From the IMG/VR virus record IMGVR_UViG_3300014656_005142: DNA of 64,000 nt. One strand, 5' to 3'. Under the pieces are notes generated by a model. It had not been told where the DNA came from. It made no database searches and worked only from the letters and a program-made list of their open reading frames with translations. Position numbers and translations under genes: made by a program. Below, in pieces: positions 39,473 through 63,421 of this stretch (position 1 is its first letter; every line of letters starts with the position of its first letter). This DNA comes from an uncultured virus (IMG/VR IMGVR_UViG_3300014656_005142). Its lineage: Duplodnaviria > Heunggongvirae > Uroviricota > Caudoviricetes.

Positions 39473-39482
39473 TTTATGAAAA

Positions 39483-40434: not shown

Positions 40435-40483
40435 TTTACGAAAAAAGTATAATATTTTATAAACTAAATGCTGGGGGGGAGGG

Positions 40484-40768: not shown

Positions 40769-40791
40769 ACAAAAAATAATAGGAGGATTAT

Positions 40792-41290: not shown

Positions 41291-41291
41291 T

Positions 41292-41471
41292 ATGACAAAA
41301 GCTATTTTTGATATATGTTCAAGATGTAGAAAATATGGTAGATTTGAAAAAAGAGTAATTGTTGATATGAGAAGATATTTCTGTAATTCCTGTAGGGCTG
41401 CTCTTTTCTCTAAGAATAAATGTGAAGATTATGAGAAATGGAAATTATATGTTTATAGAGAGGATAAATAA
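41292..41471 (+). CDS. Small Zn-finger protein (59 aa, not in ORF track)
   Basis: CSRC...CNSC; fills the gap before cysC. Confidence 0.55.
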   Translation: MTKAIFDICSRCRKYGRFEKRVIVDMRRYFCNSCRAALFSKNKCEDYEKWKLYVYREDK

Positions 41472-41473
41472 AG

Positions 41474-41809
41474 ATGATATTCTGGATAACAGGAAAAGCT
41501 AAATCTGGTAAAACCACTTTAGCTTACAGAATGGCGAAGCAAATAAAAGGAATTGTTCTTGATGGAGATGATGTTAGAAAATACTTTCCTGAAGAATATG
41601 ATTCTATGAGCATATATAGGCATCTTGAACGAATAACTAATTTTGCTCTTATATTAGAGAATCAAGGATTTAATGTTATAATCTCGTGCATTAGTCCAGA
41701 TAGATCTATTAGAAAATATTTTCAAAGAAAATTTGAGAGTTGTATAGAAATCTGCCTTCCTTTTGGGACAATGTGGGAAGGAACTAAATATGAATATCCT
41801 AAGGATTAG
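41474..41809 (+). CDS. cysC: Adenylylsulfate (APS) kinase, short form
   Basis: IFWITGKAKSGKTTLA, LDGDDVR, LENQGFNVIISCISP..R; lid region shortened. Confidence 0.8.
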   Translation: MIFWITGKAKSGKTTLAYRMAKQIKGIVLDGDDVRKYFPEEYDSMSIYRHLERITNFALILENQGFNVIISCISPDRSIRKYFQRKFESCIEICLPFGTMWEGTKYEYPKD

Positions 41810-48450: not shown

Positions 48451-49461
48451 ATGAGTTCATTCAAAATAAAAGATTATCTATCACAAAATAAGTTTTCCTT
48501 CAAGGAAATAGGAAGAAATGAACTTCAGATGGGTTGTCCTATTTGCGGCAGGGAAAATCATTTCTATTTTAACTCAGAAAAAGGAACAGGAATATGCCAT
48601 AAATGCAAGTGGTCAACTTCCATAGTAGGCTTGCTAATGGTAATGGGTAAGTTGCAAAAAAAAGACGCTGTACGACTTGTTTTCGGACTCTCAGATCATA
48701 GTTTAAGTGGCATTAGCGGTAGGTTAGAAAAATTAAAAGGTTCAGAAATTTCCGAAGATTATAATTTCTATGTAACCTTTTTTAGAAACGAAATTCCAGA
48801 TGGATGTATAGATGTAAATGCAAAGAATTTTCCTAAAGCTTTATCGGAAAGAAAGATAACTTCAGGAATGGCTATAAAACTAGAAGCTAAGATATGTAAT
48901 AAATCTGGAAAATATTTTAACCGAATTATTTTTCCAGTTTCTACTCTTAAAACCAGAACTTTTATTGCTCAAACTGGATTCACTAAAGATAAGTTCAAAG
49001 AGATGAAGTTATTCAGTAAGGACAAAAAGAATAAGGAATTAAGAAAAGTTCTTTTTCCTGTAGGATCTTTTATGTCTGAAACTTTATATTTATATGATGA
49101 CTTTAGAGATAGTGAAAAAGACTTATTTATTGTAGAAGGTCATTTAGATGCCATATCCATGGTGAGGAGAGGATTTAATTCTAATGCTTTATTTGGAAAG
49201 AGTATAAGTTTAGAACAGGCTTATCTATTATCTAAAACTAAAGCTAATAAAATTTTCTATGTTCCGGATGGTGATGTATGTCATAAAGATTCAGTGAGAT
49301 ATGTTTCTATTTTAGATAAAATATGCTTCGATAAAGAAATAAGAGTATGTGTTCTTCCTTTTGAAAATGATCCTGATGATATTGATGATGATTCGTTATT
49401 TAATTCTATTAGTAAAAGCCTTCCTCTGGATCTTTATAAATTACTTGGAGTACATCTATGA
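48451..49461 (+). CDS. dnaG: DNA primase (Zn finger + TOPRIM)
   Basis: CPIC..H..CHKC, NRIIFP, VEGHLDA, PDGD, DPDD. Confidence 0.88.
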   Translation: MSSFKIKDYLSQNKFSFKEIGRNELQMGCPICGRENHFYFNSEKGTGICHKCKWSTSIVGLLMVMGKLQKKDAVRLVFGLSDHSLSGISGRLEKLKGSEISEDYNFYVTFFRNEIPDGCIDVNAKNFPKALSERKITSGMAIKLEAKICNKSGKYFNRIIFPVSTLKTRTFIAQTGFTKDKFKEMKLFSKDKKNKELRKVLFPVGSFMSETLYLYDDFRDSEKDLFIVEGHLDAISMVRRGFNSNALFGKSISLEQAYLLSKTKANKIFYVPDGDVCHKDSVRYVSILDKICFDKEIRVCVLPFENDPDDIDDDSLFNSISKSLPLDLYKLLGVHL

Positions 49462-50327
49462 GAATAATAAAAGAAATTAAGAATGAGTTTAAACCATTTA
49501 TTAGATTTAAAAATTTAGAAACTGATCAATTTGAATCTGTTGAAGTTCTGGATAATAATCTATTATATCTTAAAAAGAATCTTTCTGAAAATATTAACGA
49601 ATCTGGAGTAGAGAATCTAGGGACAGATTTTATGCTTTATCAAATGGGACAAGGGAATTTAAAATTTAGTAGAAGATGGGCTTGGCTATTTAGACATTAT
49701 ATATGGGCTTCCAGAGTTATTGTCCCTAGAGCTAATGTTGTGGATGTAGGATGTGATGTTGGAGAGATTCGTAAGATAATAAGTAAATCTTTTTATATTA
49801 AAAATCCTTTATATTTGGGGATAGATCTTAATTATAAAGGATTAAAAGAAGGGGCTGAAAAAATACAAATGAAGATTCCTGCTATATATGTCCAGCATGA
49901 TGTAACTCTGGGATTACATTTCATTAAGTCTAATTCTGTGGATATTATTTTTGCAGGAGAAATTATAGAACATTTTAAGAAAAAATTTGGAATCATTTTA
50001 TTAAAAGAAATGAAAAGAGTTCTTAAAGAAGGAGGAAGATTTATAATTTCTACCCCTAATAAGAATCATTCTAAGGGATATGATTTTCATGTTCATGAAT
50101 ATGAAATTGAAGAGATTAAAGAGTTAATAGAAAAAATTGGGTTGAAAGTTGATAAAATATGGGGGTGGGTGACTACAGAGAAGTTAGTATTATCTTCTAA
50201 AAAAAAGAATGTCAAAAAAATGTATAATATCTTGAAGAAAAATGTTCATAAAGATATAGTTGTGAATCTATTAGCATATATTGATCCTGAAATATCTGAT
50301 GCTTTTTGCATAGAAGGCATTAAATAG
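49458..50327 (+). CDS. Class I SAM-dependent methyltransferase
   Basis: VDVGC, GIDL, EIIEH, RVLKEGG..IISTPN, HVHEY. Confidence 0.88.
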   Translation: MRIIKEIKNEFKPFIRFKNLETDQFESVEVLDNNLLYLKKNLSENINESGVENLGTDFMLYQMGQGNLKFSRRWAWLFRHYIWASRVIVPRANVVDVGCDVGEIRKIISKSFYIKNPLYLGIDLNYKGLKEGAEKIQMKIPAIYVQHDVTLGLHFIKSNSVDIIFAGEIIEHFKKKFGIILLKEMKRVLKEGGRFIISTPNKNHSKGYDFHVHEYEIEEIKELIEKIGLKVDKIWGWVTTEKLVLSSKKKNVKKMYNILKKNVHKDIVVNLLAYIDPEISDAFCIEGIK

Positions 50328-50513
50328 GGAACCTCTAAGAAGCTCTTTTTTGCGAAGGTCGTATATATATGCACAAGGTAGGCCACGAAAAAATTTTAAA
50401 AACTTGTTCCAAAAAATTCTTGAAAAGGAGGGAAATTTATGTAAGTGAGATGAAATTTATATGGGTTATTATGTTTTATTATTTAATTTTATTTTAAAAA
50501 GGAGTGTAAGAGC

Positions 50514-51473
50514 ATGGCAAAAGATAAAAAGAGCAAGAAAGGAAAGCCTATTAAGGCTAAGGAAGAGGTTGAGGAAGAGGAGTTAGATCTGGATGATCTG
50601 GATCTAGAAGATGATGATCTAGAACTAGAAGCGGAGGAAGAAGAAGAGGAGACTGAAGAAGAAGAGGAGACTGAAGAAGAAGAGACTGAGGAAGAAGAAG
50701 AAGTGGAAGAGGAAGAGGAGACTGAGGAAGAGGAGACTGAGGAAGAGGAGACTGAGGAAGAGGAAGAGGAGACTGAGGAAGAGGAAGAGGAGACTGAGGA
50801 AGAGGAAGAAGAAGTAGAAGAGGAAGAGGAACTTCCTAAAGAAAAGGCTCGTTTTCCTGGAAAAAAGATTATTCCCCAAGTTAAGAAAATAGCATCATCG
50901 GGAACTAGAGTTAAGAGATTAGAGGTCAATGGGCAAAAAACCGTCGTCCCTATTGCTTTTAAGCCTCTGATTTTAGCTCTTGGGAAGTTTGGGAAAGTGG
51001 TTCATAAACCTTCTATAACAGTTTGCCTCCTTGACGGTAAAGATGGGGCTAACTTTGCGAGCATTGTTCAGCAAGAATCTGCAGATACGGTAACTAATTT
51101 GTGGCTTAATAAATCTATCCTGAAAGATGGAAGAAAGTTTGTTCCTGCAGGAAAGAAACTGGTTGCCATGTGTGGTTTTTGGAAAAAGGGAGAAGTGATC
51201 ATTGCTGTGAAAGTGAAGATTGGCCAGGATCAAATAGATGATGCCATAGAGTTAGTTAAACAATATGCAGAGTGGTTTAAAGCGAATGTTCTTTCAGGAT
51301 CCAAAAAAGCTTCTAAGAAAGAGGGGACTGAAAAGAAAGAAGTCAAGAAGGTTGTGAAGAAAGTGGCCAAGAAAGTAGAAGAGGAAGAAGTGGAAGATGA
51401 AGAGGAGGAGGTAGAAGAGGAGGTAGTGGAGAAGAAGAAAGTCAAGAAAATTAAAAAGAAAGTCAAGAAATAG
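50514..51473 (+). CDS. Acidic/basic low-complexity protein with central DUF5655/YjbR-like domain
   Basis: Long Glu/Asp tract, Lys-rich ends; FKPLILAL..NFASIVQQ..LWLN..GFWKKGEV..QIDDAIELVKQ. Confidence 0.65.
   Translation: MAKDKKSKKGKPIKAKEEVEEEELDLDDLDLEDDDLELEAEEEEEETEEEEETEEEETEEEEEVEEEEETEEEETEEEETEEEEEETEEEEEETEEEEEEVEEEEELPKEKARFPGKKIIPQVKKIASSGTRVKRLEVNGQKTVVPIAFKPLILALGKFGKVVHKPSITVCLLDGKDGANFASIVQQESADTVTNLWLNKSILKDGRKFVPAGKKLVAMCGFWKKGEVIIAVKVKIGQDQIDDAIELVKQYAEWFKANVLSGSKKASKKEGTEKKEVKKVVKKVAKKVEEEEVEDEEEEVEEEVVEKKKVKKIKKKVKK
50634..50830 (+). repeat. Tandem GAGGAAGAGGAGACT-type repeats encoding (E)nT units
   Basis: 15/18/21-nt repeat units visible directly. Confidence 0.85.
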
Positions 51474-51504
51474 TTAGGAGATTAAATTTGATAACTTAAT
51501 CTAG

Positions 51505-51536
51505 AAAAGGGCAGGATATTTTTCTGCCCTTTTTTT
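51505..51536 (+). terminator. Intrinsic terminator
   Basis: AAAAGGGCAG...CTGCCCTTTTTTT hairpin plus U tract. Confidence 0.88.
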
Positions 51537-51555
51537 ATTATTTTAGGATCATTAT

Positions 51556-53259
51556 ATGAAAATAGGATTAGTGTTATATGCTCTCTCAGATCTTGGCGGT
51601 ATAATTAATCATGTAGAAAATCTTGCATTAGGGCTTAGAGAAATAGGCCATAGTGTAAATTTTCATATTCTTCTATGGCAATCTGATTTTCAGAATCTGA
51701 GATATACAGATGAAGAAATTATTAACCTTCCTGGATGGTCTTATGGGACTTTTTGTGCCATTAATCAAAGCACTGGATGGAATGCTTCTCCAGGGAAAAT
51801 TAAACTCGGATATCTTGGGGAAGAAAATTTAAAAAGAGTAAAAGAGAAATTATCCTCTTATGATTTAATAATATGGGAAGTTCCTGTTCCTACAAAATTA
51901 AGATCTAATATGGGAAATCATGATTGGGTAGATTTTTATAACTGTTGCAGTAAAAATATTGCAGTAATTCACGATGGTAATCTTAATAAAATTCCTTGGA
52001 TATATGAAGTTAAAGATAAATTTGTTGGATTGGCTTGTGTTCATGAATGTGCTTATAATACATCTTCTATATTAGATATTCCTAGATCTCTTATTCTTAA
52101 TCCTCAGGACTTGCTTGGCCTAGAAATGCTTAATGATTATAATGAAAGAAAAAGAGGATTTCTTTCTTTACAAGTATTTAAGGCATGGAAGCATGTGGAT
52201 GATGTAATTAGAGCTATTCCTTATCTTCCTGAATCTTATGAAAAGGTAATAGCAGGAGGAGGGATAGAACAGAGATATATGGTTTCTAGAGATAAAGTTA
52301 AACCAAGATATGTATGCAGCAGTAATTATGATCCAGATATTCCTGAATCCATATGTGGCTTTGCTAGAATTTGGGATCGTGCTTTATGGTATGGAATGAA
52401 ATATATTGGTTTTATTTCAGGAATGAAAAGGGATATGATTTTAAGGGAAGTAAGAACTCTTATTGATCCTTCTTGGAGTAGAACATATTCAGAAAAAGGA
52501 TCTCATTTTAATAGGGTAATAGTGGATGCGATGAAACAGGGAACAGTTCCCATAGCGGTAAATTTGGGAATGTCTTCTAAAGAAAGTGGAGAGGGGTTAA
52601 TATTTAAACCTAATGAAAATTATATTATGATTCCTTATAATTCTACTCCCAAAGAATATGCTTCTATAATAGAATATGCCAATAACCTTCCGAAATACAT
52701 TTATGAAGAACTTTTATATAATAACTATAAACTCTTAAATCTTTTTGATAGAAGAAAGGTTGCTCAAGATTATATTGATCTATCTAATGGAAAAAAGTGT
52801 GGGCCTTTAAGTAAGAGAATAAAGTCAGTTAATGTTGACCCTACTCTTCCTGAACGTTCTGAATATGAAATGGTATCTTTCTTTGGAAGAAAAAAGAAAG
52901 AAGTTAAAGAAAAAGGATTTGCTAAAATAGGGGGAGAATATACTTTTCTCTATAAAACATTTTTCAACTTCATAAAAGCTTTATCTGGTTATGGAAAATT
53001 GAAATTATCTAAAGGAAATATCTATTTGATTATTGACAATAAGCCGAGAATTTGCATTATAGAAAAGCAGTCTTCTAAGAAGAGACTCGTGTTGTGTTTA
53101 ATTGGGGCAGTGGGTTCTGAAAGTAAATTTTCTCTTATGGAACCTAATTTAGATGCTATGCTTATATTATCTAAAAGTAAGATCTTTCTATCTGTAACGA
53201 ATGGAAATATAGATGATTGTTTAGAAATAATAAGGATATTCTTAAATTGGATAAAATAA
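51556..53259 (+). CDS. GT-B glycosyltransferase, probably DNA-modifying, with C-terminal DUF5655-like domain
   Basis: LGGIINHVENL..LGH.V, IHDGN, FKAWKHVD, IDPSW, HFNRVIVDAM..GTVP; ~110-aa C-terminal extension. Confidence 0.75.
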   Translation: MKIGLVLYALSDLGGIINHVENLALGLREIGHSVNFHILLWQSDFQNLRYTDEEIINLPGWSYGTFCAINQSTGWNASPGKIKLGYLGEENLKRVKEKLSSYDLIIWEVPVPTKLRSNMGNHDWVDFYNCCSKNIAVIHDGNLNKIPWIYEVKDKFVGLACVHECAYNTSSILDIPRSLILNPQDLLGLEMLNDYNERKRGFLSLQVFKAWKHVDDVIRAIPYLPESYEKVIAGGGIEQRYMVSRDKVKPRYVCSSNYDPDIPESICGFARIWDRALWYGMKYIGFISGMKRDMILREVRTLIDPSWSRTYSEKGSHFNRVIVDAMKQGTVPIAVNLGMSSKESGEGLIFKPNENYIMIPYNSTPKEYASIIEYANNLPKYIYEELLYNNYKLLNLFDRRKVAQDYIDLSNGKKCGPLSKRIKSVNVDPTLPERSEYEMVSFFGRKKKEVKEKGFAKIGGEYTFLYKTFFNFIKALSGYGKLKLSKGNIYLIIDNKPRICIIEKQSSKKRLVLCLIGAVGSESKFSLMEPNLDAMLILSKSKIFLSVTNGNIDDCLEIIRIFLNWIK

Positions 53260-53260
53260 T

Positions 53261-53893
53261 ATGTCTCTAAAATATATAACAAAAGATAAATTTCCAGATT
53301 TTCTAAGTGAAATAAGAGTGATTGATCCTAAGATTATTCCTATTAATGCATTTGCTCGAGTCTTTTGTAGTCATTGTGGGTTGTATGCAAGAGCAATCCT
53401 TTGTCCTCCATATTTATGCCAGACATATCCTCAGTTTGAAACAATTAAATCTTCTAGAGAATGGTTTCGCCAATTTACTGAGGCTTATCTTTATATATGG
53501 AAAAATGATGGAACACAGAAATGGTGGAACTCTGAAGATGATGATAATTATAAATACATAGATCTTGTTAAAAGAAAAGGGAGAGCATTAAAAGGGTGTG
53601 AAGCATCTGGATCTAAATATATTCAGAAGATTATGAGAAGAATACAAATTGTCAATAAGAAAAGAGGATATGATGTTTTTTGTTTTGTCACGGGGAATTG
53701 CGCACTTTGCAGCGGGAAAGGGCATGGGAATAAATGCGAAAACAGAGATAATCCCCCTTGCAAGAAAGGAGGATTAGTTTCATTAGAGGCTGGAGGAATA
53801 AATGTATATCACTTGCTTAGAAAATTAAAGATAGATTATCAGTATCCTGTTGTGGATTATTTAACTCTTGTAACTTTAATGGTAGTGAAATGA
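53261..53893 (+). CDS. DUF2284-like metal-binding protein
   Basis: C..CGLY....CPP, GNCALC..C...PPC, SLEAGGINVY. Confidence 0.75.
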   Translation: MSLKYITKDKFPDFLSEIRVIDPKIIPINAFARVFCSHCGLYARAILCPPYLCQTYPQFETIKSSREWFRQFTEAYLYIWKNDGTQKWWNSEDDDNYKYIDLVKRKGRALKGCEASGSKYIQKIMRRIQIVNKKRGYDVFCFVTGNCALCSGKGHGNKCENRDNPPCKKGGLVSLEAGGINVYHLLRKLKIDYQYPVVDYLTLVTLMVVK

Positions 53894-53905
53894 GGAGAAA
53901 GTGAA

Positions 53906-54256
53906 ATGAGTGGAATTAAGGAAATTGATCTTAATGTAGGTTGCCAGTGTACTGAGCCTGATCATATCATTTTAAGTGCTATGCCAAGTGAAGATGTTAT
54001 CAAATCGGGGATGAAGTCCTGGGCTGAGATTCATAAGTCCATTGGGCAACGGGGGGGTAGAAAAATGAATGATGAAGAAAGATTAAGATTTGCGAAAGCT
54101 GTTTTGGAAACATATTTTAGCCTAAATGAATCTGTAGATAAAGCTGGAGGGATCGGATTTTCTATTAAAGACCTTAAAGAAATGAGTGTCATAGAACTAA
54201 TTTCTATTATTTGTACTAACAATATTCGGTTCTGCTTTAAGGAGAAAGAAAGTTGA
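53906..54256 (+). CDS. Hypothetical protein
   Basis: GAGGAG SD; possibly two fused mini-genes (internal MNDEER). Confidence 0.55.
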   Translation: MSGIKEIDLNVGCQCTEPDHIILSAMPSEDVIKSGMKSWAEIHKSIGQRGGRKMNDEERLRFAKAVLETYFSLNESVDKAGGIGFSIKDLKEMSVIELISIICTNNIRFCFKEKES

Positions 54257-54483
54257 ATACAATTATAAATGCAAAAAAGAGAACTTCGTTATTGTGGGAT
54301 AATATGATAGTATTAGATAAGATAGAAAAATTAACTTCTAAGGTAGAAGATTTAAATGAATCCGTTAGGATATTGTGTGAACTTTTAGCATTAGTTTTGA
54401 AGGTTAAAATTAATTGGGAAAGTGATAAAGAAGAAGAAGAAGATAAAGAAGAAGAAGATGAAGAATATAATCAAACAACCTGA
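54253..54483 (+). CDS. Hypothetical coiled-coil protein with acidic tail
   Basis: TTG start, AGGAG SD. Confidence 0.5.
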   Translation: MNTIINAKKRTSLLWDNMIVLDKIEKLTSKVEDLNESVRILCELLALVLKVKINWESDKEEEEDKEEEDEEYNQTT

Positions 54484-54937
54484 TCGCCATTCTTGTATGG
54501 TATGTGTCGCCTCGATGATTACAAACAAAGATCTTAAATATGTCACTGATTTTATAGGTCATGATGGTTCAGAATTTTCCTTTACTTCTGGGCATCCTCT
54601 TAGATATAGAGGATTTGGGATGATAGAAGTGATGCAATATCTTTTATCAGAGAGGTTTATGTTAGGCCATTTTTATAGATCTTCTGATAAAGATGGTCTA
54701 TTGAAAATTAAGAGTAAAGATAAAGAACTTAATATAGTTTTTAATCTTAAGAATCCTGCGATGTTGGTAGTTGTTAGTCAAGTTTTTGGATCTAAAGTGA
54801 GACATAGTGTTTATTGGGATGGAGAAGATGTTCTTGATCCCAATCCTGATGTTCAAGGATTAAGAAAATTAGAAGATTATGAAATTACTGAATGGTGGCC
54901 TGTTGTGAGGTTTGAAGAATCTGTGGAGGATTTATAG
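54458..54937 (+). CDS. Peptidase C39-like protein
   Basis: IKQPDRHSC..C..SMI, HSVYWDG..VLDP (Q/C/H/D). Confidence 0.65.
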   Translation: MKNIIKQPDRHSCMVCVASMITNKDLKYVTDFIGHDGSEFSFTSGHPLRYRGFGMIEVMQYLLSERFMLGHFYRSSDKDGLLKIKSKDKELNIVFNLKNPAMLVVVSQVFGSKVRHSVYWDGEDVLDPNPDVQGLRKLEDYEITEWWPVVRFEESVEDL

Positions 54938-54948
54938 GAGGAAATGAT

Positions 54949-55197
54949 ATGAATATAAGTTCAGGAATGGCTGCTGTAAAAGCAAAAAGAAGACAAGAAA
55001 ATTTTAATAAATCTGCTGAGAGAACAATAAACAGTTTATCGATTTCTTCATTGTCCAAAGTGAGAGTGTCTACAAGATTAGCAAAATATATCTTGATAAA
55101 TTATGATACTATAATGGTTAGTGGAAAATTATATTCTACTCAAGTTAGAAATATTGGAGCAGGAGTTAAAGAATTATTTTTAAAGGAGGTAGAATAG
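54949..55197 (+). CDS. Hypothetical protein
   Basis: AGGAGG SD. Confidence 0.6.
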   Translation: MNISSGMAAVKAKRRQENFNKSAERTINSLSISSLSKVRVSTRLAKYILINYDTIMVSGKLYSTQVRNIGAGVKELFLKEVE

Positions 55198-55788
55198 GTG
55201 GCTCTTCCTAAATTAATAGATGAAATTGATATAATGGAGAAGTGGATTCCTAAAATAGAAAAGCATCCTTGTTTTCTTTATAATTTTAAAGCAATGGGGA
55301 TTACTCGTACTCAATTTGCAAATCTCATAATTGGCAAAAAGGCCATGTTATTTGAAAAGCCTTTAGAAGAAGAACTCAGAGCTAAAAAATGTCCTTGGTG
55401 TGATTTTAACGAAAGGGGAGGCCGAAAAATGTTCAGCAATAGAGATGGCAAACCTTTCAAAACTGTTCCTTTATCTCATCATGTTATGTCTCATGATAAA
55501 AATTTCGTAAGCGTTCAGGCGTTAAAATTCCAGAAAGAACTTTATGTCTATAGATTACAGCTTGTAAGAGACGGATATCATGGGGCCATGCCTTTTCTTG
55601 TAGAACATGAATGCAATTTCTGCATCTCTCCCGAGGCCAAAGGAAGAAAAAATAAATGTGCGTTACCCCAATCCTCAAGAAACAAGATGAGAAGTTTAAA
55701 AGTTCTAGGATATCCTCTAGAAGAAATCACTAAGTATAGAACTCATAAATGGTCTTTATTAGGAATCATTGTTCTTAGGAAATATTAA
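55198..55788 (+). CDS. Cys-rich protein, divergent DUF2284-like with inserted C2H2-like finger
   Basis: CPWC...HVMSH; ECNFC...CALP..SR..MRSLKVLG..L..LLGII. Confidence 0.45.
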   Translation: MALPKLIDEIDIMEKWIPKIEKHPCFLYNFKAMGITRTQFANLIIGKKAMLFEKPLEEELRAKKCPWCDFNERGGRKMFSNRDGKPFKTVPLSHHVMSHDKNFVSVQALKFQKELYVYRLQLVRDGYHGAMPFLVEHECNFCISPEAKGRKNKCALPQSSRNKMRSLKVLGYPLEEITKYRTHKWSLLGIIVLRKY

Positions 55789-55838
55789 AAAAGAATATTA
55801 TATATAGTTAAAGTTAAAACAATATAGGAGGATAAAAT

Positions 55839-56087
55839 GTGGATGTGAATAAGATCTTAACTGACGAAGAAGTCTATAAGAGTTTTCTTTACAAGAGAAT
55901 TGTTTTAGGATCTTTTGTTGCTTTTTTTTCTGGAGTGTTTACAAGTATGGGAGTTTATTTAGTTTCAGATAACCGAATTATATTTGGAATAGTTTTGTTT
56001 GTAGTTTCTCTTGTTTTATTATTTGCTTCTATTGCTTGGGGAGCATATAAGCTTTTTGAAGAAGAGAAAGAAGAAGAAGGAGAGTAA
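55839..56087 (+). CDS. Two-TM membrane protein
   Basis: Two hydrophobic segments, acidic tail; AGGAGG SD. Confidence 0.65.
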   Translation: MDVNKILTDEEVYKSFLYKRIVLGSFVAFFSGVFTSMGVYLVSDNRIIFGIVLFVVSLVLLFASIAWGAYKLFEEEKEEEGE

Positions 56088-56088
56088 A

Positions 56089-56328
56089 ATGAATTCTAGA
56101 AATATCAGCATTGAAGAAAATTATATAAGACTGATTCCCACTGTTGGTCCTAATTTCATCAAACTTCAAGTGGAAATAAGTGATTGGGGAAGATTTGTTG
56201 CTGAATTGAATAAAATTAGAGATGGAGGGAAGATTCACCTTAGAGATAATTCTAATGATAAGATGATTGTTCTGCTAGAAATAAATAATAACATAATGGG
56301 AACTAGGAGGTTAGCAGATGAGGGATGA
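56089..56328 (+). CDS. Hypothetical protein
   Basis: ATG 56089 with AGGAG SD. Confidence 0.55.
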   Translation: MNSRNISIEENYIRLIPTVGPNFIKLQVEISDWGRFVAELNKIRDGGKIHLRDNSNDKMIVLLEINNNIMGTRRLADEG

Positions 56329-57466
56329 TTTTTTATCAGTAGTTTGCGATGGAATAGGAGATTGTTACAAAGATCTTACTCGGTCTGTCTATGACGAAGG
56401 AGATATTGTTGTTTCTAGAGGGCTAGAGACTAAAGAGATAAGACCTTTTGTTTTAATCCTAAATAAGCCGCAAGAAAGATTTCTTATGTGTCCTGGCAGG
56501 AAAGCTAATATCTTTTTCCAGGTTTTAGAGAGCATATGGATTTTAGGAGGAAGAGGAGATCTTGAATTTATCTCATACTATCTTAAGAATATGCAAGCAT
56601 ATGCAGATAATAAAGAAGAATTTCACGCTCCATATGGAATTCGAATGAGACATGTTGGAAAACATAGAGAAATGTATTATGATAGTTACGGGTTTCATGA
56701 TCAATTAAAACATTGTTATGAATATTTGAAAAAAGATCCTGATACAAGACATGCAGTTATGTCTTTTTGGGATCCCGTTTTCGATAATTATCAAGTGAAA
56801 ACAAATGACAGACCGTGCAATATCGCATTTCATCTTCTTATTCGGGATGGAAAGTTGGATTTTACAATTTTCAACAGAAGTAACGATCTTCACTGGGGAT
56901 TGGCAAATACTAATGTTGTTCAATTCTCCGTGATTCTCGAAGCAATGGGAATGTTACTTTCTATTCCAGTAGGAAATCAGATTCATATATCGAATTCTTT
57001 ACATTATTATACGGATAGTCTTCTCACTAAAAGTGTTTTAGATGCAGAATATGAATTTAATCCATATGAGCATATTGAGCCTCTCCCTTTTGAAATGGAA
57101 TTCAAAACAGAAGATAGATTAGCGGATCTAGATGAAGAGTTAGAGTTATTTTTTAAGTTAGAAGATAAAATAAGAAAAGGAACTGATGAAGAATCTGATA
57201 TCGATCTTTCTTTTAATTTTTTACAAATTGCTCTCATTTTATCTAGATCTTTTAAAGCTTATAAAGAAGAAAATTATAGAAAGGCTTACAGTTATATAGA
57301 AAGAATTGAAGCAGATGATATATTTGTTTCAGCAACAGAGTTTTTAGTTCGTAAGATTACAGAAGATCTTTTGAGAGATGAGATTTCTGTAACTGTTAAA
57401 GCAAGATTTCAGAAATTATTAGATGAAGAAATTAAACAAATAATTCATTTCATATTTAATCATTGA
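56318..57466 (+). CDS. Thymidylate synthase-like protein, dUMP hydroxymethylase type
   Basis: ANIFFQVLESIWILGGR, YG.R, DPDTRHAV, DRPCN (catalytic Cys), NRSNDLHWG...N, SNSLHYY; long C-terminal extension. Confidence 0.85.
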   Translation: MRDDFLSVVCDGIGDCYKDLTRSVYDEGDIVVSRGLETKEIRPFVLILNKPQERFLMCPGRKANIFFQVLESIWILGGRGDLEFISYYLKNMQAYADNKEEFHAPYGIRMRHVGKHREMYYDSYGFHDQLKHCYEYLKKDPDTRHAVMSFWDPVFDNYQVKTNDRPCNIAFHLLIRDGKLDFTIFNRSNDLHWGLANTNVVQFSVILEAMGMLLSIPVGNQIHISNSLHYYTDSLLTKSVLDAEYEFNPYEHIEPLPFEMEFKTEDRLADLDEELELFFKLEDKIRKGTDEESDIDLSFNFLQIALILSRSFKAYKEENYRKAYSYIERIEADDIFVSATEFLVRKITEDLLRDEISVTVKARFQKLLDEEIKQIIHFIFNH

Positions 57467-57485
57467 AAATGAAGGAATATTATAT

Positions 57486-60400
57486 ATGAACCCACCTCCC
57501 CTGCACGTTCACGATCATTTTTCAACTCTCGACGGAGTTCCTTCTCCTGAATCTTATCTTGAATTATGTGATGAGCTAGAAATCCCTGCTATAGCTTTTA
57601 CCAATCACGGCAATTTATCTAGTCATGCTCAGGCTTCTATAGAATCTAAAAAATATAAAACCAAAGTCATTCTTGGAATAGAAGCTTATGTTTCTAGAAG
57701 CATAAAAGAAATTAATCTTTTAAGAAATAAAACAGATGAAGAAAGTAAGAATAAGCTTAAAAAACAAAGAGGAACATATCATATTATCTTACTTGCCAAA
57801 AATAAAGAAGGCTATCAGAATCTCATTAGACTTAATAATGAATCTTGGACAAAAGGGTTTTATTATCGTAATAGGATTGACTTTGGACTCATCAAAAAAT
57901 ATTCTTCTGGATTAATTTCATTGTCTGCTTGTTCCTCCGGAGTAATAAGTAAACTTTTATTGCAAGATAGAGACAAGGCTGCTGAAAAAGTTGCAACGTA
58001 TTTTAGAGACACATTTGGAGAAGATTTCTATTTAGAACTACAGCTTATAGATTATGAACCTCAGAATGTTGCAAACAGTAAACTAATTCCATTGGGAAAA
58101 AAACTTGATATTCCTTTTGTTCTCACAAATGACGTACATTTTTTAAGAAGGGGAGATGACAGGCTACAATCTGTACTCATCCAGTTAGCCACAAAGGGAA
58201 AGTTTGAGATGAAGGCTAAAGAGCTTTATTTAAAAACTCTTTCTGATTATGAAGAAAATTTTAAGAACCAAAGTATTATTCCCAGAGATATTTTTGTAGA
58301 ATCCATTGATAATACTTTCAAAATAGCTGATAAATGTAACTATCAAGTAGAAACCGGCAACTTATATTTTCCTGAATTTAATCATAAAGAACATTTTTTA
58401 TATAACAAATTTCCATTAGAAGATAAGAAAGAATTCTTTAAAAAGATAGTTCTTTATAGAGCTAAAAGAATACTGGGGAATAAGTTCAGTGATGAAGTTT
58501 ATAGAAAGAGAATCAAGAGTGAATATAATACTATTTCTTCTTTGGGAGGAATTGATTACTTTCTAATAGTCGATGATCTACTTCATTTTATTAGAGAAAA
58601 TAAAGCCTTTACTGTTATAAGAGGATCTGCTAATGGAAGTCTTATTGCTTTCATATTAGAGTTCGGGCTTATAGATCCCATTAAACATAATATAATGTTT
58701 GAAAGATTTATAAGCAAACATAGAAGTCTTAATGATATTGATATAGACATAGATGTAAGATCTGAGTTTAGACAAAAAGCTATAGATTATCTTAAGAATA
58801 AATATGGAAATGATAGAGTTCTATCTATAGGAACTTATAATAGAATGCAGCTTAAAGGAGCAATTAAAGACATAACGAGAGTGTTCAAGGAGAGGCTTGA
58901 TGAAAAAATAGCTAAAACTAAAGATGAAGCGAAAGCTGAACGCCTTGCAGAGAAACAATCTGAATATCTCTTTCCTGTTATCAATAGAGTCACTTCTATT
59001 ATGGAAGGAGACTTAGATGTAGAAACTGCTAGAAGAAATCATGAAATTTTTAACAAGTGGTACGAAAGAAATAGCAAGTTGATGCAGAGATATATAGAGC
59101 CGGTAATAGGAAATATCAAAAACGTATCTCTTCATCCCGCTGGAATAGTTATTATTCCTGAGAAGGCTGATAATCTTCTTCCCATAAGAACTCAGGCTCA
59201 TCCTCATGATCCTAAGAAAAGAGTTATTGCTACAGCTTGGGAAAATTCTCATACGGGTAGAGAAGATTTAAATGAAATAGGAGTTATGGTATTAGATATT
59301 TTAGGAGTTAAAACTTTATCTGTTGTTTCTGAAGTGATAAGTCTGGTAAAGAAAACTCGAGGGATCGATATAGATATTTCTAAAATATCTCTTGAAGATA
59401 AAAAGACTTTAGATATGTTTAATAGGAAAGAATTGATAGGAGTGTTTCAGTTTTCAGGAGGAGCAGCTTCTCAGATAGTTGATATAACAAATATAACAGA
59501 GTTTAATGATCTTATAGTTATTAATGCCTTAGCCAGACCAGGAGCTCTAGGAGCTAAAGCGGAACAGGATTTTGCAGAAAGAAAGAAAAATCCTAAACTT
59601 GTCAGGTATGATCATCATTCTCTTAAAGATATTCTAGGAGATTCTTTGGGGGTATTAGTATTCTCAGAACATATTTTAAGAACAGCTTCAGAATTTGCAG
59701 GAATGCCTCTTAAAGAAGCAGATACTCTTAGGAAAATTATTAAAAGTAAGAGTCCAGAAGTTTTTAAAAAGTATAGATCTATTTTTATTAAAGGGGCTAT
59801 GAAGAAATGGAAAAAAGATAAGAACATTAAAGAGATAGCTAAAAATATATGGAATAAATTTTCTAAAGCAGGGAGTTATTTATTCCCCAGGGGACATGCT
59901 GCGAGTTATGCTCTCCTTGGGTATATATGTCAATATCTTAAAGTTCATTATCCTATAGAATTTTTTACATGTCATTTAAGATATGCTGAGCAGAAGAAAT
60001 ATGGAAAGATCAGAGATGTTGCTCAGTCAGTGCATGGAATTAAGTTTAAAATGCCCACTATACTTACCCCTTGTTTAAAGTTTGAGACTAGTGTAGACCA
60101 CATTAGATGGCCTCTGACCGGCCTTAAAAGCGTGGGTAGTAAAGCTGTTGGTAGCATAGTTGCAAATGTTCCTTATTCTTCTTTTGAAGATTTTTATAAC
60201 AAGGTAGATAAAAGAGTTTGTAATAAGAGAGTCGTGACTAATTTAATTATAGCTGGTGTATTTTCAGAATTTGGAAATAAGAGAGCTATAATGGGTAAAT
60301 ATATAGAACTCAGGAAAGATAAAAATAAAGATCTTCCTATTGCCTTTTCTTCTAAGAATTTATTAGCTGCTGAAATGGAAAATATTTATGGATTTGAATT

Positions 60401-60776
60401 AGAATCTATAGAAAAGATGTATCGTGAACAACTAAAGCCGTATAGGAAATTATTAACCAGCAGTAAGGAATTCTTTGAAGCTGATGCTGGAGATCAAATT
60501 GTTCTTTTTGGAAGGGTTGAAAAAATTAATCCCATAGTCACTAAGAAGGGAGATAAGATGGCGTTTTGTAGTCTTAAGGGGATTGAAGATATATATAATA
60601 TCACTTTATTTCCTAAGACTTATGAATTTGCTAAAGATTATTTCAAGAAAAATAATGTACTAGTCATATCTGGCAAAAAAAATATTTACAATAGCGAACA
60701 TTCTCTTATATTAGAGGTTTCTGATAGAGGAAAAGTGATTGGATTCAAGGATAAAAATTGGGCGATAAAACTATAG
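57486..60776 (+). CDS. dnaE: DNA polymerase III alpha subunit
   Basis: PHP domain (LHVH, TNHG, TNDVHF), RGSA.GSL, FERF, DIDID, HPAG, LDILG, F...HA..Y, C-terminal OB fold. Confidence 0.97.
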   Translation: MNPPPLHVHDHFSTLDGVPSPESYLELCDELEIPAIAFTNHGNLSSHAQASIESKKYKTKVILGIEAYVSRSIKEINLLRNKTDEESKNKLKKQRGTYHIILLAKNKEGYQNLIRLNNESWTKGFYYRNRIDFGLIKKYSSGLISLSACSSGVISKLLLQDRDKAAEKVATYFRDTFGEDFYLELQLIDYEPQNVANSKLIPLGKKLDIPFVLTNDVHFLRRGDDRLQSVLIQLATKGKFEMKAKELYLKTLSDYEENFKNQSIIPRDIFVESIDNTFKIADKCNYQVETGNLYFPEFNHKEHFLYNKFPLEDKKEFFKKIVLYRAKRILGNKFSDEVYRKRIKSEYNTISSLGGIDYFLIVDDLLHFIRENKAFTVIRGSANGSLIAFILEFGLIDPIKHNIMFERFISKHRSLNDIDIDIDVRSEFRQKAIDYLKNKYGNDRVLSIGTYNRMQLKGAIKDITRVFKERLDEKIAKTKDEAKAERLAEKQSEYLFPVINRVTSIMEGDLDVETARRNHEIFNKWYERNSKLMQRYIEPVIGNIKNVSLHPAGIVIIPEKADNLLPIRTQAHPHDPKKRVIATAWENSHTGREDLNEIGVMVLDILGVKTLSVVSEVISLVKKTRGIDIDISKISLEDKKTLDMFNRKELIGVFQFSGGAASQIVDITNITEFNDLIVINALARPGALGAKAEQDFAERKKNPKLVRYDHHSLKDILGDSLGVLVFSEHILRTASEFAGMPLKEADTLRKIIKSKSPEVFKKYRSIFIKGAMKKWKKDKNIKEIAKNIWNKFSKAGSYLFPRGHAASYALLGYICQYLKVHYPIEFFTCHLRYAEQKKYGKIRDVAQSVHGIKFKMPTILTPCLKFETSVDHIRWPLTGLKSVGSKAVGSIVANVPYSSFEDFYNKVDKRVCNKRVVTNLIIAGVFSEFGNKRAIMGKYIELRKDKNKDLPIAFSSKNLLAAEMENIYGFELESIEKMYREQLKPYRKLLTSSKEFFEADAGDQIVLFGRVEKINPIVTKKGDKMAFCSLKGIEDIYNITLFPKTYEFAKDYFKKNNVLVISGKKNIYNSEHSLILEVSDRGKVIGFKDKNWAIKL

Positions 60777-60946
60777 CTTTTCTATTTGTAGCTGTTAAAG
60801 CTTTAAGAGAAATTCATGATACTCAGGGCAGAGTGTGTCCGGTATATGAAATATGTGAACAAAAATCTTGTAAGGGCAGCTATGAATCTTGGATTATTGC
60901 AGATAAGGCTTTGAAAGAACTAGAATTACTGGTAAAAGAGAAATAA
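60758..60946 (+). CDS. Small hypothetical protein
   Basis: ORF track, TTG start. Confidence 0.45.
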   Translation: MGDKTIAFLFVAVKALREIHDTQGRVCPVYEICEQKSCKGSYESWIIADKALKELELLVKEK

Positions 60947-60952
60947 CGGAAT

Positions 60953-61648
60953 ATGGATATTTTTAAAAATAAATTAGTTGATGATATTTCAGACTTTCAT
61001 CCCACTGAAAGAAAAAAGAATTGGAGTTTCGAAGTATTATCTCATTTTGGAGAAGTTGGGGCGATAATAAAATCTGTAATAATGGGAGTTTCTTTTACCA
61101 GCCTTACAGAAGAAGTATATGGATTTAATTCTATAAGATCTGGATTGATAAAAGAGTTTACTGATCTTAGTTATGATTCTTTTATGAATATTCTCAATCA
61201 TTATTCTGGATATTATAATGTGTTCATTAAAGAATTTATTGAAAGTGTTTTAAAAAAATCTTTTATCAAAAGAGACTACAGAAAACTTTTAGAAATTAAT
61301 AATACTTTAAATAGAGAGTATATAAAAATTATTCATGAAAAGAATAATAGATATGATTCTAATGCTTTGCAGATTTTGGGATTTTTTCCTAAAGATAATA
61401 GGTGGAAAGATTTTGGATATTTTCCTAGAGATCTTTCTTCTTTTATTTTTACAGAATTTGGTTTACAAAATTCTTTATTAATAGGATTTGAGAAAAAAGG
61501 GGAGAGAAATCTTATTTTAACAATCTTGTGTAACAAGAATGGATTTGCAAATAAAATAATAGAAGATAAATTTGTTGAAAATAAGAAAGAATTTGAGTTT
61601 CTAGATCTTAGAAAGTTAAGAGAAAAATTATCTGTGCAAGGGGGGTGA
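60953..61648 (+). CDS. Hypothetical protein, possibly degenerate MazG-like N-terminus
   Basis: HFGEVGAIIK...LIKEFTDL resembles the MazG GEV..K / ExxD helices. Confidence 0.35.
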   Translation: MDIFKNKLVDDISDFHPTERKKNWSFEVLSHFGEVGAIIKSVIMGVSFTSLTEEVYGFNSIRSGLIKEFTDLSYDSFMNILNHYSGYYNVFIKEFIESVLKKSFIKRDYRKLLEINNTLNREYIKIIHEKNNRYDSNALQILGFFPKDNRWKDFGYFPRDLSSFIFTEFGLQNSLLIGFEKKGERNLILTILCNKNGFANKIIEDKFVENKKEFEFLDLRKLREKLSVQGG

Positions 61649-61995
61649 TTAATATTATCACTAAAATAGTCGGGGTGACGTTTAGAAATTTGGAATACAA
61701 TATTAATAGGCAGGATATAATTAAACAATTATCTGGAAAAGAAAAAGTTTCTCTTAGAAGAGAACCAAAGAATAGATTTGATACTAATGCTGTGGCTGTA
61801 TATGTAGATCTTAGTAGTAAGAAATATAAAATAGGATATCTAAAAGCTGAACTTGCAGGAATAGTTGCAGAAATGTGGAAAGACTATAGATTCGTTTCCA
61901 GCATTTCTGAAATAAGAATGGGAGATGAGGAAAAGAATATTTCTTGGGGAATTTCTCTTGAAATTAAAAAGGCTAGATTAAGAAAATATGAATAA
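61645..61995 (+). CDS. HIRAN domain protein
   Basis: KIVGVTF, LRREPKNRFDTNAVAV, KIGYL. Confidence 0.92.
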   Translation: MINIITKIVGVTFRNLEYNINRQDIIKQLSGKEKVSLRREPKNRFDTNAVAVYVDLSSKKYKIGYLKAELAGIVAEMWKDYRFVSSISEIRMGDEEKNISWGISLEIKKARLRKYE

Positions 61996-62009
61996 AAGGA
62001 TTCAATATT

Positions 62010-62384
62010 ATGCCTATTTATAATTATGAATGTAAGAGTTGTGGATATTCTTTTGAAAGAATAGAAAAGATCACTTCTCTTTCTTGGAAAGAAGTTTCTA
62101 AAATTAGAATAAGATGTCCTAGGTGTAATCAGAAGAAATCTAAAAGAATTGTAGAATCTTTTAAAGTGGGATCTAAGATTTTAGAAACTAGAAATAAATC
62201 TGGCTATCAAACAGATGAACTCACTTTGGGGAAGATGATAGATGAAGGAGGAGTTCCTTATGAATATAAAGAAGATCTTAGAAAAAGAAGAGAAATAATT
62301 ACACGGCAAAATGAATATAATAAGGGCCTTTTAGAAAGAGCTAGAAAATATAAATTTGATCCTTTTAGTGAAGATGAATCTTAG
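62010..62384 (+). CDS. FmdB-family zinc ribbon protein
   Basis: MPIYNYECKSCG..FE..CPRC. Confidence 0.88.
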   Translation: MPIYNYECKSCGYSFERIEKITSLSWKEVSKIRIRCPRCNQKKSKRIVESFKVGSKILETRNKSGYQTDELTLGKMIDEGGVPYEYKEDLRKRREIITRQNEYNKGLLERARKYKFDPFSEDES

Positions 62385-62802
62385 ATATATAGAAATAGAA
62401 GATAAAGTGAAGGAAGCAGGATTTAGAAATTTTGCTTCTTTCTATTTTACTTACTATTATAATAAAGATTCTAAAACAACTCTTAAAGGGAGTGCTAGAA
62501 TTTTAGGAGTTTCTGAATATAAATTAAGAACTTCTGTTTTGGAAAGAAACTGGCCTATTAAAAGCAGATCAACTTGTTCCAGAACGAAACATAGAAAAAG
62601 AAGATTGTATATATGGGAAAAGGTAAAGATGAATACTCCTTTTATTTTTCCTTGGTGCGCTATTAATTATTATTATAATAGATGTCTGCTTACAACTTAT
62701 GAGGTAGGAAAAGTAATAGGAATAAGTCAATTTTCTGTAATAAAACTTATGAACAAATATAAAATGGATAGGAGGAAGCAGGGATCTTATGAAAAAAGAT
62801 AA
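62374..62802 (+). CDS. Putative HTH DNA-binding protein
   Basis: Two HTH-like segments (TLKGSARILGVS, TTYEVGKVIGISQFSV). Confidence 0.6.
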   Translation: MNLRYIEIEDKVKEAGFRNFASFYFTYYYNKDSKTTLKGSARILGVSEYKLRTSVLERNWPIKSRSTCSRTKHRKRRLYIWEKVKMNTPFIFPWCAINYYYNRCLLTTYEVGKVIGISQFSVIKLMNKYKMDRRKQGSYEKR

Positions 62803-63421
62803 TGAAATATTAGATTTTCTTAGAAGAGCTAGAAGGTTGAGTTATATAGAAAGATGTAGTAATACTATTCATATAAAACCTTATAGTGTCGCAGAGCATT
62901 CTTTCTATATAGCTTTATATACTATGATATTTGCAGATTTAGAGAATGAAAGAATTGGTGAAGAGATTTATGATGTAGGAAGTATAAGTAATTCCTCAAG
63001 TAATATTAAAAAGACATATGATGTTTTTGAAGCTGTAAGAAAAGCTTTAGTTCATGATCTTGAAGAGAGTGAGACAGGAGATATTCTATATCCTATGAGG
63101 AATATGGATTCAGATCTTAGAGATAAAATTAATGAGGTTAGAGATATTTGTGTAAACAAGGTAGTCTTTTCTGAATTACCTGTAAATGTAAGAAATTATT
63201 ATATTAGGTTATGGTCGACATCGAAAGATGATAGTAAAGAAGGAATATTAGTAGCGGCTATGGATAAATTCGAGATTCTGATGTTTGCAATAGATGAATT
63301 AGATATTGGAAACAAGGCTTTTTTAAAGATGTATAAAGATGTTAAGGAAATATTATTCCAATTTACTATCCCTTCTTTACTGTCTGTGTTAGATAAAATA
63401 GAATCAATTTATGGAAAATGA
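62789..63421 (+). CDS. HD-domain 5'-deoxynucleotidase (YfbR-like)
   Basis: RLSYIERC, SVAEHS, HDLEE..TGDI, DKFE. Confidence 0.88.
   Translation: MKKDNEILDFLRRARRLSYIERCSNTIHIKPYSVAEHSFYIALYTMIFADLENERIGEEIYDVGSISNSSSNIKKTYDVFEAVRKALVHDLEESETGDILYPMRNMDSDLRDKINEVRDICVNKVVFSELPVNVRNYYIRLWSTSKDDSKEGILVAAMDKFEILMFAIDELDIGNKAFLKMYKDVKEILFQFTIPSLLSVLDKIESIYGK

Follow-up and report, generated by a model that had tools for sequence, protein, structure and literature searches.

A predicted thymidine-replacement and DNA-glycosylation cassette in the replication module of an uncultured groundwater phage

Introduction

Hydroxymethylcytosine bearing a sugar is the textbook example of how phages protect their DNA from restriction and CRISPR nucleases, and hydroxymethyluracil (hmU or 5hmU) bearing a sugar is known chemically from base J of kinetoplastids. 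The hmU of Bacillus phage SPO1 is not known to be glycosylated, and full-text searches returned no report of glycosylated 5hmU from a pre-replicative phage pathway, supplements lying outside these searches. Our study concerns a 64-kb window, the whole stretch of DNA that was analysed, from an uncultured virus of the Caudoviricetes (IMG/VR IMGVR_UViG_3300014656_005142), in which a homologue of thymidylate synthase (TS) lies directly upstream of the polymerase gene dnaE and shares a replication module with a glycosyltransferase (GT) of the GT-B fold, a DUF2284 protein and a further Cys-rich protein, here called Cys196. The reading that we favour, and hold to be fairly probable, is that of a pre-replicative thymidine-replacement and DNA-glycosylation cassette within the replication module of an uncultured, siphovirus-like groundwater phage.

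The general idea that ThyS-associated GT-B enzymes act on phage DNA is already found in Pyle et al. (bioRxiv 10.1101/2023.12.21.572611; 2024 Cell Rep), where, in the parts of the text considered here, ThyS accompanies ~28 % of GT-B contigs. In the same parts only glycans on 5-hydroxymethylcytosine (5hmC) from 5mYOX pathways are demonstrated, the ThyS-linked clusters being counted and not dissected, and a full-text search returned no occurrence of DUF2284 either in this work or in Burke et al. 2021, which also concerns such gene clusters. A preliminary description of our window, made from its letters, had proposed that T is replaced by 5-hydroxymethyldeoxyuridine (5-hmdU), which is then glycosylated directly. 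Our analysis supports this proposal in silico, by means of a phylogenetic tree and of gene co-occurrence across viral contigs.

Results

A TS homologue resembling dUMP hydroxymethylases

The TS homologue carries the string FNRSNDLHWGLANTN and stops 19 nt 5' of dnaE, in keeping with the preliminary description, which had reported the motif and a place directly upstream of dnaE. Its Pfam TS match covers residues 17-234. A tblastn search of 50,697 GenBank phage records, of which 1054 gave a match, returned dUMP hydroxymethylases of Bacillus phages as the top hits, namely those of SP8 (45.0 % identity, E 6e-58) and SPO1 (gp29, 44.3 %, E 4e-55), and the SP-10 enzyme shared 42.7 % identity (E 1e-50 to 6e-58 over this set of three). 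The best PHROG was phrog_5131 (E 1.3e-78, over the full length), with the general TS family, phrog_160, at E 3e-29. At 382 aa the protein is close in length to SPO1 gp29, which has 383 aa and is annotated as a dUMP hydroxymethylase, and both possess a helical C-terminal extension of ~130 residues that is missing from ThyA and T4 gp42. Scores against seven NCBIfam ThyA equivalog models were far under each cut-off (64.2/174.55, 60.1/327, 46.6/108.35). The best sequence match in the PDB was MilA, a CMP 5-hydroxymethylase (E 3e-20), with thymidylate synthases at 9e-13 or weaker; MilA has Asp where the TS homologue has the last Asn of NTN.

The catalytic Cys167 (E. coli C146 column) is kept, as it is in all rows of a 30-row alignment, and the DRPCN and RSND motifs align with all references. 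The Asn that the preliminary description had placed at the pyrimidine-selecting position was recovered in the E. coli N177 column, where Asn is also found in SPO1, SP-10, the M6-like Ab18 protein, E. coli and 19/19 other TS homologues from GT or DUF2284 loci, whereas T4-type enzymes have Asp. In a maximum-likelihood tree of the 30 rows, which included four canonical ThyA and three T4-type proteins, the TS homologue fell outside both the ThyA clade (support 100/100, branch 3.98) and the T4-type dCMP hydroxymethylase clade (100/99, branch 3.41). It was placed in a four-row clade with three uncultured relatives, and the references nearest by tree path were SP-10 (2.54) and SPO1 gp29 (2.70). A tree against ThyA and the hydroxymethylases had been proposed in the preliminary description, and its outcome was favourable; the predicted dUMP-type assignment rests upon the nearest distance, the two excluded clades and the Asn.

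A GT family found beside hydroxymethyl-pyrimidine-forming enzymes

Pfam (E <= 0.01) assigned to the GT-B enzyme Glycos_transf_1 alone, and weakly (E 9e-4). The AlphaFold model displayed a clear GT-B fold (mean pLDDT 86.5), confident over residues 1-445, with residues 451-466 and 504-549 modelled poorly. Foldseek returned HepE, PimA and BshA at ~1e-11 and the T4 alpha-glucosyltransferase (AGT) at 2.4e-10. The model superposes on T4 AGT with 10-11 % identity in structural alignments, and at the sequence level the enzyme falls outside the T4 AGT family. A fold of this kind is compatible with DNA, lipid or wall-polymer acceptors, and it is therefore the gene context that decides. Residues 446-567 (52891-53259) form a poorly modelled C-terminal extension of ~120 residues, missing from relatives of ~445 aa, which may represent a small domain acquired by this enzyme or an open reading frame (ORF) fused to it.

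The protein search revealed 113 metagenomic members of this GT family, and relatives were encoded on 272 viral contigs. Neighbourhoods were counted in the best 80 loci, the ORFs of which were clustered and the cluster representatives named with Pfam. A Tet_JBP dioxygenase gene neighboured the GT in 57/80 loci, typically with a 4-nt overlap. A dUMP-type TS homologue adjoined it in 15 loci as judged by ORF cluster and in one by tblastn alone (L040), and in another it lay 22 nt past the end of the locus (L011). Six loci had neither enzyme, two of them being cut at the GT (L027 and L033). Overall, an enzyme forming a hydroxymethyl-pyrimidine stood beside the GT family in 74/80 loci (57 Tet_JBP and 17 TS). 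In the window the TS homologue is 3 kb downstream of the GT, and here, as in L001, the GT lies within the replication module.

No C5 cytosine methylase was found in any of five records with TET and GT, two of which were at least 90 % complete. Following the reasoning of Pyle et al. and of a 2026 T-dioxygenase paper, as set out in the parts of these sources considered here, this points to dioxygenases that oxidise T and to 5hmU as the acceptor. That a single GT family is paired with two unrelated routes to 5-hydroxymethyluracil is the strongest argument for 5hmU in DNA as the acceptor, and the gene neighbourhood supports the prediction that the GT-B enzyme transfers a sugar to a hydroxymethylpyrimidine in DNA.

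The same family also occurs in a cassette with the 5-hmdU DNA kinase HMUDK, seen on 13 viral contigs (listed under L002-L013, L026, L040 and L073), in the order HMUDK, FkbM methyltransferase, small ORF, GT, TS, PD-(D/E)XK nuclease and PolA. A DNA-GT-like enzyme thus lies within thymidine hypermodification clusters of the kinase type, a combination not found in the searched passages of Lee et al. 2021, where the word 'glycosyltransferase' has no occurrences.

A conserved DUF2284-Cys196-TS-DnaE core

The preliminary description had named two DUF2284-like Cys proteins. The first, at 53261-53893, was clear, and the second, Cys196 at 55198-55788, was doubtful, as it has no Pfam match of its own. 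This was the sole exception among the genes named there; the remainder, including the S-adenosylmethionine (SAM) methyltransferase and the YfbR-like HD nucleotidase, were found in place and with the domains claimed (Table 1). Across 21 sequences, DUF2284 has seven invariant Cys (C36, C39, C48, C147, C150, C159 and C167). Its model was confident (pLDDT 91.3) and gave no Foldseek match; a nitroreductase-like fold is mentioned as a lead only. The ESM Atlas confirmed the DUF2284 assignment and returned no usable match for Cys196. Cys196 has six invariant Cys and a zinc-finger-like CPWC...H centre. Among 12 of its homologues, zf-Di19 was matched in three (best E 5e-4) and DUF2284 weakly in two (best E 0.028), and hhalign of Cys196 against DUF2284 aligned the C-terminal Cys motif alone (probability 10 %, E 0.0032).

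A single-sequence scan of viral contigs with DUF2284 found nothing, and an alignment-based scan found 11 loci, two of them on contigs that had already come up. The order DUF2284, Cys196, TS homologue, DnaE was kept in all 11. The co-occurrence that the preliminary description had looked to was therefore seen on both sides, the GT standing beside TET/JBP or TS as counted above and DUF2284 standing upstream of TS in every viral locus found. The slot upstream of DUF2284 was far more variable. An unrelated Glyco_trans_1_2 GT occupied it in L087, L090, L093 and, weakly, L097, and hhalign of the window GT family against the L087 protein gave no relationship (probability 0.1 %). L089 and L092 carried a radical-SAM/SPASM enzyme alongside a TAGT, a member of the TET-associated glycosyltransferase family, and radical-SAM genes were also present in L091, L094 and L097. 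Slot proteins of L095 and L096 had no Pfam match, and L096 had a methyltransferase in addition. As the slot contents vary, the decorating enzymes are swapped between lineages.

The complex model of DUF2284 with Cys196 gave an ipSAE of 0.78, against 0.00 for the best of three controls. The score mark used was reached by 116/157 solved complexes and 2/215 mismatched pairs, counts that hold roughly here because our own alignments were used. Runs of the model shared at least 92 % of contacts, with a partner pLDDT of at least 80. The modelled interface joins DUF2284 residues 27-43, which bear C36 and C39, to Cys196 residues 26-43, which adjoin C25. The two proteins are thus predicted by the model to bind each other, and they may hold a metal site in common.

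NCBIfam lists a family in which arsenite methyltransferase is fused to DUF2284 (PMC13188914, table row), a hint that DUF2284 may be linked to SAM methyltransferases. A role of DUF2284 in DNA modification, or any published function, was not found by full-text searches, supplements again lying outside them; two papers that came up for DUF2284 did not deal with DNA.

Two further observations concern the spacing of these genes. Four small ORFs (116, 76, 171 and 82 aa) occupy 53906-55197 between DUF2284 and Cys196; L001 lacks them and its two genes adjoin. In L094 (1833-9992; relative G002), the interval between GT and DUF2284 holds a radical-SAM/SPASM gene, an IS605 OrfB/TnpB-like gene with a Cas12f1-like TNB domain, two HNH endonuclease genes and a PfkB sugar kinase gene; the cassette has here been split by mobile elements.

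Kinase route and nucleotide supply

The statement in the preliminary description that no 5-hmdU kinase or aGPT-Pplase gene is visible was upheld. Pfam scans, which took in 118 window ORFs, found no HMUDK or aGPT-Pplase-type domain, and tblastn of an HMUDK from a related locus against the window gave a best E of 1.2. HMUDK (PF18723) was likewise found in 0/5 records of the DUF2284 clade, one of which is a complete (100 %) genome of 140 kb bearing terminal repeats, by a search that recovered it in 2/2 HMUDK-type records as positive control. The Pfam scans of the window likewise showed no amino-acid transferase domain. The APS (adenylyl-sulfate)-kinase-like ORF at 41474 was considered as a 5-hmdU kinase and rejected, given that adenylyl-sulfate kinase models alone match it and two sulfotransferase genes lie near.

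Methyltransferase and 319-aa protein

The methyltransferase gene of the cassette has homologues in 7/11 DUF2284 loci. In the metagenomic protein P0012 (803 aa), a methyltransferase 57 % identical to it and a GT 58 % identical to the window enzyme are joined in one ORF, the fusion being one gene call on a 3-kb contig. Together the fusion and the recurrence support a tailoring role for the methyltransferase.

Between methyltransferase and GT lies a gene for a protein of 319 aa that had no Pfam or PHROG matches. Its N-terminal part is a long repeat rich in Glu, its middle is globular and its ends are rich in Lys. Homologues 54 % identical to the protein occupy the same place between methyltransferase and GT in L087, L088 and L090. 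Indels and joints in public contigs fall at 50582-50668 of this gene, which suggests that it varies in repeat length. The protein was also considered as a DUF2284-like protein and was rejected, being an acidic/basic low-complexity protein.

Upstream sugar/transferase block and GT9

A block of sugar and transferase genes, which the preliminary description had not mentioned, precedes the replication module and contains seven glycosyl- or glycerophospho-transferases in total (Table 1). It is kept in relative G001 (L098), where a dCMP deaminase gene stands in the place of the DNA methylase. We infer that the block may act on DNA. A second GT9 gene, at 47280, sits between DnaB and primase; it matched the heptosyltransferase II model at E 6e-15, under the cut-off, and homologues occur at the same place in 5/11 DUF2284 loci.

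Setting of the cassette

The window is phage DNA of ~30 % G+C, with every long ORF on the + strand, and makes up roughly half of a 119,386-base contig that carries its DUF2284 protein. Tail tube, tape measure and baseplate-like genes fill the left part, the sugar and transferase block lies at 22-42 kb, and the replication module extends over 42-64 kb. This module opens with a UvsW-like helicase (with an intein), DnaC, DnaB, GT9 and primase. Its middle holds the methyltransferase, the acidic protein, GT-B, DUF2284, the small ORFs, the Cys-rich protein and the TS homologue, and its end DnaE, two HIRAN proteins, a zinc ribbon, the YfbR-like HD protein and HU. The YfbR-like protein scored 43 bits on the NCBIfam 5'-deoxynucleotidase model, under the cut-off of 122, and has homologues in 6/11 DUF2284 loci. 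As the arrangement of the cassette recurs in relatives, it is not due to chance.

Near-identical DNA was present in 16 groundwater metagenome runs from 10 studies, four of the runs being possible sources. Megablast of 49000-63500 against GenBank phages gave no match, and the window GT and DUF2284 as tblastn queries gave none in the phage records named above. In the RNA-library run X12, contigs were present that agree identically with stretches of the GT, TS, DnaE, GT9 and zinc-ribbon genes; these were not taken as expression because DNA can occur in RNA libraries.

Further genes of the window deserve mention. The UvsW-like helicase gene (41892-44213) has an intein inside (Intein_splicing, residues 231-499) with HNH endonuclease matches. 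Two HIRAN-domain proteins are encoded in tandem directly 3' of DnaE (60953-61995), the second of which is kept in relatives. Directly 3' of the tape measure, 7344-8710 encodes an S-adenosylmethionine decarboxylase (PF02675, E 3e-11) and a DUF3326 protein (E 8e-66), a pair that may have a polyamine-related auxiliary function. Other phages have polyamine-derived DNA modifications.

Table 1. Features of the window, with the evidence for each assignment
Feature	Coordinates	Strand	Evidence or remark
Sugar/transferase block, ~20 kb	22170..41809	+	Pfam, PHROGs, NCBIfam
GT9	22170		Paralogue of 47280
DNA N6/N4 methylase	23275		Interleaved in block
GT2 (four genes)	24569, 30148, 33272, 34049		
Family-4 uracil-DNA glycosylase (UDG)-like gene	25509		Interleaved in block
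TagF-like glycerophosphotransferase gene	26331		
Gmd, GDP-mannose 4,6-dehydratase	29090		397 bits vs cut-off 415
FnlA/PseB-like	34780		2-acetamido-2,6-dideoxy-L-hexose type enzyme
WbcJ-like	35772		2-acetamido-2,6-dideoxy-L-hexose type enzyme
Sulfotransferases (two genes)	36923, 37647		
GT4	38405		
Methyltransferase	39664		
APS-kinase-like fragment	41474		111 aa, about half of profile
GT9 (heptosyltransferase-like), candidate second DNA-glycan transferase	47280..48446	+	PF01075 E 1.6e-16
Class I SAM methyltransferase, predicted sugar/base tailoring	49458..50327	+	Methyltransf_11 E 2e-10
Glu-rich/Lys-rich 319-aa protein	50514..51473	+	Between methyltransferase and GT
GT-B glycosyltransferase (GT4/T4 alpha-GT-like fold), predicted DNA 5-hmdU glycosyltransferase	51556..53259	+	AlphaFold model, gene neighbourhood
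DUF2284 metal-binding protein	53261..53893	+	PF10050 E 2.9e-15, 56.8 bits vs gathering cut-off 25
Cys196, Cys-rich, C2H2-like CPWC...H motif, basic C-terminus, predicted DUF2284 partner	55198..55788	+	Conserved position, complex model
TS-family pyrimidine hydroxymethylase, dUMP type (predicted 5-hmdUMP synthase), 382 aa	56318..57466	+	PF00303 E 6e-19
DnaE-type DNA polymerase III alpha	57486..60776	+	Pfam DNA_pol3_alpha, PHP, finger, HHH_6 domains
YfbR-like HD 5'-deoxynucleotidase, candidate dTMP/dNMP phosphatase	62789..63421	+	PF12917 E 4.3e-27

Discussion

Taken together, the enzymes of the cassette can be arranged into a predicted pathway of four steps. The TS homologue would convert dUMP to 5-hmdUMP with methylene-tetrahydrofolate, like SPO1 gp29. 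Host kinases, or further phage kinases, would then yield hmdUTP, which the phage DnaE would insert instead of T, while the YfbR-like HD nucleotidase may drain dTMP. In duplex DNA the GT-B enzyme, judging by its fold and neighbourhood, would put the sugar of a nucleoside diphosphate (NDP)-sugar directly on the hydroxyl of 5-hmdU, a step that would need no kinase-activated route of the ViI/M6 type. Finally, the SAM methyltransferase, possibly with GT9 and the upstream transferases, would tailor or extend the sugar. DUF2284 and Cys196, as a predicted Cys-rich metal-binding heterodimer, would probably provide a redox or metal-dependent accessory function.

Several observations weigh against this pathway. 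The backbone of the TS tree was unresolved (59/94), and the clade of the TS homologue did not group with SPO1 and SP-10 with support; the tree therefore excludes the TS homologue from ThyA and the dCMP hydroxymethylases without placing it as the sister of SPO1. By its fold the GT stands just as near to GT4 enzymes that work on lipids, small molecules and teichoic acid. HMUDK was also present in 13/16 GT loci with an adjoining TS homologue, and there the GT therefore works beside the kinase route, so that direct glycosylation is not the sole possibility. In the 64-kb window (~half of the ~119-kb contig), hmdUMP kinase, dUTPase and dCMP deaminase were not found; among five relatives, thymidylate kinase was found in none and dCMP deaminase in two. 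The window-type GT was present in just 2/11 DUF2284 loci, and no recognisable GT was found in the slot of L091, L095 or L096. Since the core was kept in 11/11, DUF2284 tracks the TS homologue and not a given GT. The role of DUF2284-Cys196 is, moreover, not explained by the proposed scheme.

The strongest of the competing explanations is one that we consider unlikely. The TS homologue and the DUF2284-Cys196 core may make a thymidine derivative beyond plain 5-hmdU, for example if the C5 substituent undergoes a redox reaction, either in the nucleotide or in DNA. The GT-B enzyme, the other GTs, TAGT, the radical-SAM/SPASM enzymes and the methyltransferases would then be lineage-specific decorations, and the sugar in the window may sit on a different acceptor group.

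A more elaborate version of the cassette reading joins two proposals, and in this joint form we regard it as quite unlikely. Instead of one hexose, the 5hmU would carry a tailored oligosaccharide, methylated and possibly sulfated, with 6-deoxy or N-acetyl-6-deoxy sugars in it; its assembly would fall to the GT-B enzyme, together with the paralogous GT9 enzymes and the transferases encoded upstream. DUF2284-Cys196 would at the same time be a new heterodimeric Fe-S or zinc enzyme, providing a new redox step in the C5 modification of pyrimidines that is common to a whole clade of DnaE-encoding phages.

The next explanation in rank, which is improbable, is that the GT-B enzyme and the sugar genes do not glycosylate DNA and that their targets are, for instance, proteins of the virion, polymers of the host envelope or teichoic-acid-like material, with or without 5-hmdU replacement. 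The fold is as near to PimA, BshA, TarM and HepE as to T4 AGT, and the upstream block, which follows the tail genes, includes typical surface-polysaccharide enzymes (GT2, TagF-like, Gmd, FnlA/WbcJ-like). Furthermore, in the parts of Pyle et al. (bioRxiv 10.1101/2023.12.21.572611) considered here, ~65 % of GT-containing contigs have no neighbouring base-modification enzyme. However, the GT family itself is paired with TET/JBP or a TS homologue in 74/80 loci, often by a 4-nt overlap, and the gene lies inside the replication module in the window and L001. TAGT fills the corresponding slot in relatives, and the sugar block is interleaved with a DNA methylase gene, a UDG-like gene and, in G001, dCMP deaminase. 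It is very improbable that no 5-hmdU is made and that the TS homologue acts as an ordinary thymidylate synthase or dCMP hydroxymethylase: although it has a TS-family domain with all core catalytic residues and the tree backbone leaves some room, it scores far under all seven ThyA cut-offs, is excluded by the fully supported ThyA and T4-type clades, matches characterised dUMP hydroxymethylases best, has Asn and not Asp at the specificity column, and is accompanied by no DHFR domain among the window ORFs scanned with Pfam.

If the thymidine-replacement and glycosylation reading is correct, the cassette would constitute a defined, testable gene set for a glycosylated hydroxymethyluracil base. One GT family is seen to change its partner, being paired with TET/JBP dioxygenases in some loci and with TS-type hydroxymethylases in others. 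The cassette also draws attention to DUF2284-Cys196 as a conserved, unassigned component of thymidine modification in a clade that recurs in groundwater metagenomes. Should the block of sugar, sulfo- and methyl-transferases act on DNA, the chemical range of DNA glycans would be wider, and the block could supply new hmU-labelling enzymes.

Comparison with known systems

The TS enzyme of the window shares with those of SPO1, SP8 and SP-10 its length, C-terminal extension, catalytic Cys and Asn, with 43-45 % identity over the core, and in these phages too the gene stands beside DNA replication genes. SPO1 differs in having a family-A-type polymerase (gp31), whereas the window phage has DnaE, and none of DUF2284, Cys196 and GT was present in the SPO1 stretch viewed. 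The T4 system, in which the dCMP hydroxymethylase gp42 is combined with alpha- and beta-glucosyltransferases, resembles the predicted pathway in its logic, a TS-family hydroxymethylase being followed by a GT-B enzyme acting on DNA. The base differs, being predicted as U (Asn) in the window and C (Asp) in T4, and the window has in addition a methyltransferase and DUF2284-Cys196, with no dCTPase analogue seen in it.

ViI, M6 and PhiW-14, whose hypermodification uses 5-HMUDK plus aGPT-Pplase/AADT, likewise start from 5-hmdU made by a dUMP-type TS homologue, and 13 viral contigs hold the same GT family in HMUDK clusters; the window and 5/5 relatives of its clade differ from them in having no HMUDK. 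The preliminary description had likened the predicted base to base J. This likeness stands for the predicted product class, O-glycosylated 5-hydroxymethyluracil, and does not extend to the enzymes, which are GT-B instead of GT-A JGT/TAGT and follow a TS-type route instead of one through the thymidine hydroxylase JBP1/2. No TET/JBP domain (PF12851) was found among the window ORFs or in G001 and G002, the search of these two having no positive control, and no TAGT/JGT (PF20691) was found among the window ORFs. As the hmU of the window would be made before replication, replacement could be global and not site-specific as in base J. The fold group of the window enzyme is mostly retaining, and the base J linkage is beta; the window GT is therefore probably retaining, with an alpha linkage likely in its product.

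The closest published survey is that of Pyle et al., which, in the parts considered here, describes GT-B enzymes that are similar to T4 GTs, BshA and MshA and that neighbour TET-like dioxygenases or ThyS. The TET-type GT loci of our study have cytidylyltransferase neighbours, like contig 53 of that work, and by gene context the window GT family would belong among the phage 5mYOX/ThyS-associated GT-B enzymes described there. Synthase-associated DNA glycosyltransferases are thus already in published surveys and the DUF2284-Cys196-TS-DnaE core is not among them; the most original elements of this locus are the predicted DUF2284-Cys196 pair and a possible complex glycan.

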